From Escherichia coli (lineage in GTDB: Bacteria; Pseudomonadota; Gammaproteobacteria; Enterobacterales; Enterobacteriaceae), in NCBI RefSeq assembly GCF_030384885.1, contig NZ_CP128613.1: a stretch of 64,000 bases of DNA; one strand, written 5' to 3'. Positions within the stretch are counted from its first letter, which is position 1; every line of letters begins with the position of its first letter. The position numbers were made by a program, and so were the translations under genes. The notes under the pieces are model-generated. The model made no database searches. It had not been told where the DNA came from and saw only the letters and a list, made by a program, of their open reading frames with translations. This document shows, one piece after another, positions 37,173-40,159 of this stretch.

Positions 37173-38945
37173 ATGCGTACAGAATATTGTGGACAGCTCC
37201 GTTTGTCCCACGTGGGGCAGCAGGTGACTCTGTGTGGTTGGGTCAACCGTCGTCGTGATCTTGGTAGCCTGATCTTCATCGATATGCGCGACCGCGAAGG
37301 TATCGTGCAGGTATTTTTCGATCCGGATCGTGCGGACGCGTTAAAGCTGGCCTCTGAACTGCGTAATGAGTTCTGCATTCAGGTCACGGGCACCGTACGT
37401 GCGCGTGACGAAAAAAATATCAACCGCGATATGGCGACCGGCGAAATCGAAGTGCTGGCCTCCTCGCTGACCATCATCAACCGCGCAGACGTTCTGCCGC
37501 TTGACTCTAACCACGTCAACACCGAAGAAGCGCGTCTGAAATACCGCTACCTCGACCTGCGTCGTCCGGAAATGGCTCAGCGCCTGAAAACCCGCGCTAA
37601 AATCACCAGCCTGGTGCGCCGTTTTATGGATGACCACGGCTTCCTCGACATCGAAACTCCGATGCTGACCAAAGCCACGCCGGAAGGCGCGCGTGACTAC
37701 CTGGTGCCTTCTCGTGTGCACAAAGGGAAATTCTACGCACTGCCGCAGTCTCCGCAGTTGTTCAAACAGCTGCTGATGATGTCTGGTTTTGACCGCTACT
37801 ATCAGATTGTAAAATGCTTCCGTGACGAAGACCTGCGTGCTGATCGTCAGCCTGAATTCACCCAGATCGATGTGGAAACCTCTTTCATGACCGCGCCGCA
37901 AGTGCGTGAAGTGATGGAAGCGCTGGTACGCCATTTGTGGCTGGAAGTGAAGGGCGTGGATCTCGGTGATTTCCCTGTAATGACCTTTGCGGAAGCAGAA
38001 CGCCGTTATGGTTCTGATAAACCGGATCTGCGTAACCCGATGGAACTGACTGACGTTGCTGATCTGCTGAAATCCGTTGAGTTCGCGGTATTCGCAGGTC
38101 CGGCGAACGATCCGAAAGGCCGCGTTGCTGCTCTGCGTGTTCCGGGTGGCGCATCGCTGACCCGTAAGCAGATCGACGAATACGGTAACTTCGTTAAAAT
38201 CTACGGCGCGAAAGGTCTGGCGTACATCAAAGTTAACGAACGTGCGAAAGGTCTGGAAGGTATCAACAGCCCGGTAGCGAAGTTCCTCAACGCTGAAATC
38301 ATCGAAGCCATCCTGGATCGTACTGCCGCGCAAGATGGCGATATGATTTTCTTCGGTGCTGATAACAAGAAAATTGTTGCCGACGCGATGGGCGCATTGC
38401 GTCTGAAAGTGGGTAAAGACCTTGGTCTGACCGACGAAAGCAAATGGGCACCGCTGTGGGTTATCGACTTCCCGATGTTTGAAGACGACGGTGAAGGCGG
38501 CCTGACGGCAATGCACCATCCGTTCACCTCACCGAAAGACATGACGGCGGCAGAGTTGAAAGCTGCACCGGAAAATGCGGTGGCGAACGCTTACGATATG
38601 GTCATCAATGGTTACGAAGTGGGCGGTGGTTCTGTGCGTATCCATAATGGTGATATGCAGCAGACGGTGTTTGGCATTCTGGGGATCAACGAAGAGGAAC
38701 AGCGCGAGAAATTCGGCTTCCTGCTCGATGCCCTGAAATACGGTACTCCGCCGCACGCAGGTCTGGCATTCGGTCTTGACCGTCTGACCATGCTGCTGAC
38801 CGGTACCGACAACATCCGTGACGTTATCGCCTTCCCGAAAACCACGGCGGCAGCATGTCTGATGACCGAAGCGCCAAGCTTTGCTAACCCGACTGCCCTG
38901 TCCGAGCTGAGCATTCAGGTTGTGAAGAAGGCAGAGAATAATTGA
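37173..38945 (+). CDS. aspS: Aspartate--tRNA ligase AspS (590 aa)
   Basis: [49 protein letters not shown]...; class II aaRS motifs. Confidence 0.97.
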
Positions 38946-38946
38946 T

Positions 38947-39390
38947 ATGACTTATAAGCGTCCCGTTTCTATTCTGGTGGTTATTTATGCGCAAGATACG
39001 AAACGGGTGCTGATGTTACAGCGGCGTGATGATCCCGATTTCTGGCAGTCGGTAACCGGCAGTGTGGAAGAGGGGGAAACCGCGCCGCAAGCCGCCATGC
39101 GCGAAGTAAAGGAAGAGGTCACCATTGATGTTGTCGCTGAACAACTGACCTTAATTGACTGTCAGCGCACGGTGGAGTTTGAAATTTTTTCACATTTACG
39201 TCATCGCTATGCGCCGGGCGTAACGCGTAATACGGAATCTTGGTTCTGTCTTGCACTCCCGCACGAGCGCCAGATCGTTTTCACTGAACATCTGGCCTAC
39301 AAGTGGCTTGATGCGCATGCTGCGGCGGCGCTCACAAAGTCATGGAGCAACCGGCAGGCGATTGAACAGTTTGTAATTAACGCTGCCTGA
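38947..39390 (+). CDS. nudB: Dihydroneopterin triphosphate pyrophosphatase NudB (Nudix; 147 aa here)
   Basis: [58 protein letters not shown] (Nudix box); start 1 nt after the aspS stop; N-terminus appears 3 codons shorter than the K-12 protein as I remember it. Confidence 0.88.
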
Positions 39391-39418: not shown

Positions 39419-40159
39419 ATGGCAGGTCATAGTAAATGGGCCAACACCAGACATCGTAAAGCTGCGCAGGATGCTAAGCGCGGTAAAATCTTCACTAAAA
39501 TCATTCGTGAACTGGTAACCGCGGCGAAGCTGGGCGGTGGAGATCCGGATGCTAACCCGCGTCTGCGAGCAGCCATTGACAAAGCACTGTCTAACAACAT
39601 GACCCGTGACACCCTGAACCGCGCAATTGCACGTGGTGTGGGCGGTGATGATGATGCAAACATGGAAACCATCATCTACGAAGGTTACGGTCCTGGCGGC
39701 ACGGCAATCATGATTGAATGTCTGTCTGATAACCGCAACCGTACGGTTGCTGAAGTGCGTCACGCATTCAGCAAATGTGGCGGTAACCTCGGTACTGATG
39801 GTTCCGTAGCCTATCTGTTCAGCAAAAAAGGCGTGATCTCCTTCGAGAAAGGCGATGAAGACACCATCATGGAAGCAGCTCTGGAAGCTGGTGCTGAAGA
39901 TGTTGTGACCTATGATGATGGCGCGATTGACGTCTACACTGCATGGGAGGAAATGGGCAAAGTACGCGACGCTCTGGAAGCGGCAGGTCTGAAAGCAGAC
40001 AGCGCGGAAGTTTCCATGATCCCGTCCACCAAAGCTGATATGGATGCAGAAACCGCACCGAAACTGATGCGTCTGATCGATATGCTGGAAGATTGCGACG
40101 ACGTGCAGGAAGTCTACCATAACGGTGAAATCTCTGATGAGGTTGCAGCGACTCTCTGA
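39419..40159 (+). CDS. yebC: YebC/PmpR-family transcriptional regulator YebC (246 aa)
   Basis: [40 protein letters not shown]... matches remembered YebC. Confidence 0.95.

Follow-up and report, generated by a model that had tools for sequence, protein, structure and literature searches.

An Escherichia coli aspS-nudB junction free of the ERIC repeat that encodes the annotated start of NudB in K-12

The window, by which we mean the whole 64-kb stretch of E. coli DNA analysed here, carries a repeat-free aspS-nudB junction that is very probably of ancestral type, and the nudB start annotated in K-12 lies in the right arm of an ERIC element inserted at that junction. The three codons that the window gene appears to lack at its 5' end, compared with K-12, are with equally little doubt to be read as the absence of an N-terminus derived from a mobile element, and not as a deletion in the window strain. 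The window allele is itself ordinary, common and repeat-free.

The features of the window that concern this junction are:

37173-38945, + strand: aspS (aspartate--tRNA ligase), 590 aa; from the list of open reading frames and the RefSeq annotation of the near-identical strain 2013C-4282
38923-38925, + strand: in-frame TGA of the nudB frame, 8 codons upstream of the ATG, which closes the frame
38946-38946, + strand: single nucleotide, T, that separates the aspS stop from the start of nudB (TGA-T-ATG); same geometry in 67 of 80 species representatives
38947-39390, + strand: nudB (dihydroneopterin triphosphate diphosphatase) of 147 aa, starting at ATG; the repeat-free form, of ancestral type
38950-38956, + strand: empty ERIC insertion site ACT/TATA; from alignment A1, the junctions in other genera and the TA-flanked terminal inverted repeats TACAC...GTGTA (alignments A2 and A3)
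39419-40159, + strand: yebC, the next gene of the aspS-nudB-yebC-ruvC cluster; from the list of open reading frames and RefSeq annotation

Direct reading showed that aspS ends in AAT AAT TGA, with the stop codon at 38943-38945. The sequence across the junction is AAG AAG GCA GAG AAT AAT TGA T ATG ACT TAT AAG CGT CCC GTT TCT ATT CTG, in which the last ten triplets are the first ten codons of nudB. The first-pass annotation of this DNA had placed the nudB ATG 1 nt after the aspS stop and an in-frame TGA 8 codons further upstream; both the letters and the list of open reading frames bear this out. The seven codons that separate this TGA (38923-38925) from ATG 38947 are AGA AGG CAG AGA ATA ATT GAT, and direct reading in the nudB frame found no ATG, GTG or TTG among them. 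The nudB frame is therefore closed by the TGA, and a canonical upstream start is impossible in the window. The gene neighbourhood aspS-nudB-yebC-ruvC is conserved, according to the list of open reading frames and RefSeq annotation, and the spacer between nudB and yebC, 28 nt long, is identical in the window and in K-12.

Of 5,426 complete E. coli genomes, 5,425 had a match to a 751-nt query that crosses the junction. In many of these, among them K-12 derivatives, W, B and O157:H7, the match came in two pieces that span 876 nt. Alignment A1 showed that K-12-type DNA consists of the window-type sequence plus 125 bp, placed exactly between ACT (codon 2) and TAT (codon 3), the flanks being otherwise collinear in the two types. 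In the window the insertion point falls between 38952 and 38953, and the TATA at 38953-38956 holds the presumed TA target. The filled K-12-type junction reads TGATATGACT[CAAATACACGAAATC...GGCAGCGTGAAGGATAAAGTG]TATAAGCG, where the inner bracket encloses the inserted 125 bp. According to RefSeq annotation the aspS-nudB spacer is 117 bp in the K-12-lineage strain J53 and in W3110, and 1 nt in the window.

The annotated nudB start of K-12 is a GTG located 15 nt from the right end of the insert, and MKDKV is therefore encoded by inserted DNA. The K-12-lineage sequence GTG AAG GAT AAA GTG TAT AAG encodes MKDKVYK; five repeat-derived codons (GTG AAG GAT AAA GTG) stand for the ancestral ATG ACT, which gives MKDKV against MT and a net gain of three codons. 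Insertion between codons 2 and 3 separated the original ATG from the rest of nudB, and in filled strains the gene is annotated from the GTG in the right arm of the repeat, MKDKV replacing MT.

Several statements of the first-pass annotation can be placed against these results. It had given the K-12 protein as one of 150 aa beginning MKDKVYKRP, correctly, since the PDB chains are 150 aa long and K-12-lineage DNA encodes MKDKVYK, and its remark that the window protein is three codons shorter at the N-terminus holds for the annotated starts (147 vs 150 aa). It had proposed, as one of two possibilities, a strain polymorphism of 9 bp: a polymorphism it is, the allele being found in many genomes, but its size is that of the 125-bp insert. 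A reference NudB that also begins MTYKRP, a case which it had raised against its own claim, does not exist in K-12 and is encoded at the DNA level in about 31% of complete E. coli genomes.

The exact three-residue difference in protein length (147 vs 150) is what a simple 9-bp, or three-codon, deletion or substitution at the 5' end of nudB would produce, yet such a change is refuted by alignment A1, with its 125 bp between codons 2 and 3 and spacers of 1 nt and 117 bp, and we give it almost no credence. Even less can be said for a sequencing or assembly artefact in the window, in favour of which no supporting point was found. Up to 1,672 complete genomes and 72 of 80 other species share the junction, and the window is collinear with E. 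coli 2013C-4282 (NZ_CP027579.1), from which it differs by one synonymous substitution in 3.75 kb; an artefact is thereby refuted. Chance was considered irrelevant, since the allele is common to many genomes.

The 125-bp block of K-12 is, by its sequence, a member of the ERIC/IRU family, and we interpret it as a 123-bp element together with a TA duplication. It aligned end to end with intergenic copies at queA-acpH, pepB-iscX, pmbA-cybC and yjbE-yjbF and with copies located elsewhere in Pseudenterobacter and Enterobacter, six independent ERIC copies being taken in by alignments A2 and A3. The core of the block agreed with primers ERIC1R and ERIC2 at 17/22 and 18/22 positions, as counted by eye on the alignment; the primer sequences used are those printed in 233 papers. 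The 125 nt were predicted to fold into a hairpin of -44.8 kcal/mol (z = -5.8), which none of 200 shuffles matched, and double-sided compensatory changes were seen at 19 of the 42 consensus pairs in a comparison of ten ERIC copies. At the sensitivity of blastn, E. coli genomes contained a median of 4 detectable ERIC copies, and up to 7; the same program, run with word size 7, detected no copy in the whole of the window.

Insertion of ERIC elements duplicates a TA target. The ends of the element read TA-TACAC...GTGTA-TA, and comparison of the empty site, GCN-TA-TA-AGCG, with the filled site, GCN-TA-[TA]-element-[TA]-AGCG, fits a 123-bp element with duplication of TA. This arrangement is seen best in Pseudenterobacter timonensis (GCA-TA-[TA]-TACAC...GTGTA-[TA]-AGCG); in K-12 decay has turned the left copy into CAAA.

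ERIC/IRU elements (RU-1) are 127-bp enterobacterial repeats in the description of Sharples & Lloyd 1990 and Hulton et al. 1991, as these are cited in PMC2759123. The K-12 block has in common with the family the length class, the long imperfect palindrome, the conserved core with the ERIC-PCR primer sites, the dispersed copies in transcribed intergenic DNA and the TA-flanked inverted termini. The nudB copy differs in that it sits inside coding sequence, after nudB codon 2, and not between genes, and in that private substitutions have made an ATGA stop/start overlap. The only Rfam hit of the K-12 copy was RF02818 V_AS5 (Vibrio RNA AS5), matched on the same strand over all 129 model positions with 44.5 bits (E = 4.6e-8). 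This lies below the gathering threshold of 96 bits, so that the copy matches the whole model and yet is not a member by the Rfam criterion; the aspS-nudB junction of the window had no Rfam match.

Fusions of ERIC/RU-1 sequences to open reading frames were described by Delihas 2007 (PMC2759123), where nudB, ntpA and aspS are not mentioned. K-12 NudB resembles these fusions in that a mobile repeat gives codons to an annotated protein, the repeat-derived part being the start codon and residues 1-5, or 24 residues in the 169-aa gene calls considered below. It is unlike them in that the host is a characterised enzyme with solved structures and in that fused and unfused alleles segregate within one species. 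The origin of the K-12 NudB start codon and first five residues in an ERIC element, as a further repeat-ORF fusion, is modestly new: the literature search found no relevant description of ERIC at aspS-nudB, two earlier papers on ERIC/IRU loci being outside its reach. IRU was first seen near the ruv region, and the nudB copy may therefore have been known earlier.

Presence of the insert was scored with a query composed of the insert and its flanks, at a threshold of at least 80% coverage. The insert was found in 3,753 of 5,425 complete E. coli genomes (69%), and coverage of the query was below 80% in the other 1,672 (31%), which include E2348/69 and 'Seattle 1946'. In the rows sampled from this second group the two 50-bp flanks were directly adjacent, except that the most divergent lineages matched one flank only.

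Among 80 representatives of Enterobacteriaceae species, 72 had a compact junction: stop, 1 nt and ATG in 67, a TAATG overlap in 4 and a 5-nt spacer in 1. Among these were the most distant genera in the sample, for instance Kluyvera, Kosakonia, Cedecea, Buttiauxella and Pluralibacter. This distribution identifies the compact junction as the ancestral architecture and the ATG of the window as the conserved start. Eight representatives were filled at the same site. The same 125 bp occurred in E. albertii, three Citrobacter spp. and P. timonensis; Salmonella arizonae and diarizonae had the same ends with a replaced centre; and Intestinirhabdus alba was filled by a different, 80-nt element lying between intact TATA repeats. 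All three Escherichia representatives other than E. albertii were empty.

The repeat-free state of the window could also be explained by secondary loss. An ancestor of the window lineage would have carried the ERIC insert; with the hairpin as a stimulus, recombination between the TA/TATA target duplications would have excised it precisely and so restored the ancestral frame. E. coli, E. albertii, Citrobacter spp. and Pseudenterobacter carry orthologous copies of the nudB-linked ERIC, and the private substitutions that these share (AGGAGC to ATGAGC with a compensating change, GATAAAGTG) indicate that the element is old. E. albertii, the sister species, is filled, filled alleles are scattered on the tree of the flanks, so that a single origin requires losses, and P. 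timonensis retains intact TATA repeats on both sides of the element, all of which would suit this explanation. However, the end points of the K-12 allele share no microhomology (ACT/CAAA...GTG/TATA), and slippage therefore cannot yield alleles of the window type or of the R6 type. In addition, the window shows no footprint, the other Escherichia representatives are empty as described above, and many independent precise losses would be needed. We consider loss unlikely and favour a window lineage that never had the repeat.

The history of the filled allele was addressed with the same comparisons. Over the 121-nt ERIC body, K-12, Citrobacter spp. and P. timonensis share 93-95% identity, and the genes flanking it in these organisms are 81-86% identical, with about 61-67% identity at third codon positions. 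The E. albertii copy forms a long branch (85-89%) in which the pairing is kept. The old left duplication, four bases long, varies freely: CAAA, AAAG, TATA, GCTG and AATG. We reject horizontal transfer of a DNA segment carrying the filled allele, since the flanks beside ERIC are native in each genus; those of P. timonensis show identities of 92-100% to empty Enterobacter and of 80-90% to K-12, and those of K-12 are 100% identical to the empty R6. Repeated insertion from a resident master copy is unlikely, as in E. coli genomes free of the nudB copy no other copy exceeds about 81% identity. A single old insertion combined with strong selection and many precise losses, reinsertion at a hot spot, and very short conversion tracts are possible explanations.

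Public annotation of the repeat-free allele uses a start different from the ATG given above:

38938-38940, + strand: ATA codon used as the nudB start by RefSeq/PGAP in repeat-free strains; from RefSeq annotation and translation

In 2013C-4282 and in R6 the RefSeq nudB is a 453-nt gene starting at ATA (in 2013C-4282, locus 1739-2191, which corresponds to 38938-39390 of the window). This codon lies 9 nt upstream of the ATG and gives a 150-aa protein beginning MIDMTYKRP, with an 8-nt overlap with aspS; at least 1,000 contigs in public databases encode this protein. In spite of the RefSeq coordinates and of the wide occurrence of the sequence in databases, it is very improbable that this ATA is the true start in repeat-free strains. 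In 72 of 80 species the ATG three codons later keeps a constant spacing to the aspS stop, the codons upstream of it are aspS coding sequence, the best anti-Shine-Dalgarno duplex upstream of the ATA ends just 2 nt from it, and the length of 150 aa looks like a fit to a K-12-based family model. ATA is, moreover, an extremely rare initiator codon. The ATA start is probably an artefact of matching the K-12 length, and the 150-aa, aspS-overlapping NudB of RefSeq/PGAP in repeat-free E. coli looks wrong.

Some gene callers place the start on K-12-type DNA at an ATG within ERIC and report a 169-aa MSIDNYVNGMSEGSQRRGS-VKDKVYKRP protein. The 19-codon extension inside ERIC gave no support for coding when its translations were compared by eye, the changes being mostly non-synonymous, and because RNA pairing explains its conservation, that conservation does not support coding either. 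Four NudB N-termini (147, 150, 150 and 169 aa) are thus in circulation for two DNA alleles.

The best anti-Shine-Dalgarno duplex upstream of ATG 38947 has a calculated energy of -5.0 kcal/mol and ends 11 nt from the start, being both weak and badly spaced, and the local RNA structure at the nudB start of the window is weak. Translationally coupled gene pairs are known in which stop and start codons overlap or abut, as in trpB-trpA. The aspS-nudB pair shares with these its TGA-T-ATG geometry, a weak Shine-Dalgarno sequence, a common operon and a conserved spacing; in the case of aspS-nudB we infer the coupling from sequence. The aspS-nudB-yebC-ruvC cluster has been described as one operon with differentially translated genes (PMC4378010). 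Taken together, the weak Shine-Dalgarno match, the conserved TGA-N-ATG geometry and the operon membership suggest that nudB of the window is probably translated mainly by termination-reinitiation coupling to aspS, in which ribosomes terminating at the aspS TGA would restart at the adjacent ATG 38947. The literature search returned no experimental start-site data for either nudB allele: PMC4378010 names the operon only, and nudB and b1865 are not mentioned in the TetRP start-site paper.

Filled alleles of the E. coli type retain the ancestral ATG, which opens a 20-codon ORF of conserved length. The TGA of this leader overlaps, in the form ATGA, an in-frame ATG of the nudB frame. When ten ERIC copies were compared, the G-to-T change that creates ATGA (AGGAGC to ATGAGC) was found only in the four nudB-linked copies, and these also carry a compensating C-to-A change in the opposite arm, so that pair 58-80, which is GC in the other six copies, is UA in these four. 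In the basal 10-bp stem, leader codons 7-10 are paired with the annotated GTG and its GAGG. Related arrangements were observed in the other filled species: the leader stop overlaps GTG (GTGA) in S. diarizonae, is followed by 1 nt and a second GTG in S. arizonae (where it is TAA), and lies just beyond a new in-frame ATG in Intestinirhabdus.

This recurring geometry of leader stop and new start suggests a translational relay, and the identity of 93-95% in the element body, set against about 61-67% at synonymous sites across genera, would imply selection on the element. We put forward only tentatively that the nudB-linked ERIC is a domesticated relay leading from aspS through the leader to nudB, and not a passive insertion; on present evidence this is doubtful. 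In such a relay, translation of the leader would melt the 5' arm of the ERIC hairpin, the 3' arm of which would sequester the Shine-Dalgarno sequence and GTG of nudB, and the ATG in the ATGA overlap may yield the 169-aa NudB isoform. If the relay were true, the repeat-free allele of the window would be the natural control with direct coupling.

For the window alone these results have little consequence: it has a normal nudB with the ancestral start. The MKDKV N-terminus of K-12, in turn, is derived from a mobile repeat and is unsuitable as a length standard for NudB. The split of about 69/31 within one species constitutes a natural experiment on an ERIC hairpin placed between a highly and a weakly translated gene, and bears on the expression of NudB, an enzyme of the folate pathway.

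The protein encoded by the window ORF is NudB in its normal, repeat-free form, and activity on dihydroneopterin triphosphate is predicted for it. It scored 247 bits against the NCBIfam equivalog NF006961 (Nudix superfamily; cut-off 103), residues 1-146 matching profile positions 3-149 of 151. Residues T2 to A147 aligned with V5 to A150 of PDB 2o1c_A over 146 residues with two differences, T2 vs V5, a pair that stands at the start of the alignment, and H124 vs P127:

39316-39318, + strand: CAT (His124), Pro127 in K-12, the sole internal amino-acid difference from K-12 NudB; from the 2o1c alignment and the sequence

The 23-residue Nudix segment is identical to that of 2o1c_A. Structures of E. 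coli NudB are available in 2o1c and four other PDB entries, and the exact 147-aa sequence of the window is already present in public databases. The N-terminal residues that differ vary within the family, as judged from the 80 species representatives, and are not conserved.

The window and 2013C-4282 are collinear, their coordinates always differing by 567,608; over two 4-kb segments that lie far apart the identity is 100%, and the single synonymous difference is at 38756 in aspS. Between 4 and 19 of the 5,426 complete E. coli genomes were at least 99% identical to the window segments tested, which identifies the window as part of a rare, divergent E. coli lineage. Local import as the cause of the divergent flanks was rejected, because both of the distant 4-kb segments are rare in E. 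coli to the same degree, with 4 and 12 genomes reaching at least 99% identity. By these sequence comparisons, the identity of about 95% between the aspS-nudB region and most E. coli is lineage-wide and not local.

In repeat-free E. coli, where aspS and nudB adjoin without an ERIC repeat as they do in the window, the RefSeq/PGAP annotation initiates nudB at an ATA codon, yielding a 150-aa protein which begins MIDMTYKRP and whose coding sequence overlaps aspS by 8 nt. A conserved ATG is located 3 codons downstream from this ATA, which is probably a start-site artefact arising from fitting the K-12 length. The 150-aa sequence has been propagated widely through databases.

Window 38938-39390 (NZ_CP027579.1 606546-606998; strain R6 locus L003 1739-2191): nudB coding sequence with ATA start, RefSeq/PGAP
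Window 39316-39318: NudB His124 codon (CAT), Pro127 in K-12

The His124/Pro127 replacement is the sole internal amino-acid difference between the NudB of the window and the structurally characterised enzyme; the exact window protein was already present in public databases. E. coli 2013C-4282 (NZ_CP027579.1) is collinear with the window at an offset of 567,608, and over the 3.75 kb compared a single synonymous C/T difference was found, in aspS at window position 38756. Judged by sequence identity, the source of the window is a rare, divergent E. coli lineage, because at 99% identity or above the tested segments match only 4 to 19 of the 5,426 complete genomes of this species.

In the filled, K-12-type allele, two coding stretches were noted in the ERIC copy, both absent from the window:

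L002 (K-12-lineage locus) 1748-1810: 20-codon leader ORF from the ancestral nudB ATG
L002 1807-1866: nudB-frame stretch from an in-frame ATG

The leader ORF, which starts at the ancestral nudB ATG, is conserved, and its TGA overlaps the in-frame nudB ATG as ATGA, 19 codons upstream from the annotated GTG. The choice of this ATG by some gene callers accounts for the 169-aa NudB entries. In the predicted fold, the ERIC stem holds the annotated GTG, together with its GAGG, in base pairs.

The nudB-linked ERIC body was compared between L002 1758-1878 and L016, L042, L053 and L059 1380-1500, loci of further genomes. Identity was 93-95% among Escherichia, Citrobacter and Pseudenterobacter, compared with only about 61-67% at the third positions of codons in the flanking genes. 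The flanking sequence is native to each genus, and the filled allele is patchily distributed.

Other occupants were found at the junction:

L048 1417-1500: different 80-nt element after nudB codon 2, Intestinirhabdus alba
L030 1384-1500: filled allele, Salmonella diarizonae
L081 1385-1500: filled allele, Salmonella arizonae

Since Intestinirhabdus alba holds a different element at the same TATA site, with intact TATA direct repeats on either side, the data suggest that small palindromic elements insert preferentially here, making it a hot spot. Both Salmonella alleles retain the two ERIC ends, including the GTG AAG/AAA GAT AAA GTG start region, with unrelated sequence in place of the central core; the leader ORF extends to a stop overlapping or abutting a nudB GTG.

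Two ERIC copies in further E. coli genomes were also noted:

L084 401-530: copy between queA and acpH, E. coli SF-166
L088 652-775: copy matching Rfam RF02818 (Vibrio RNA AS5), K-12 W3110

The SF-166 copy ends directly at the acpH start codon (GTGTAT|ATG), and therefore nudB may not be the only gene with an ERIC copy right up against its start codon. The W3110 copy matched the full length of the RF02818 model, with a score below the gathering score; RF02818 may itself have been built on an ERIC-type repeat.
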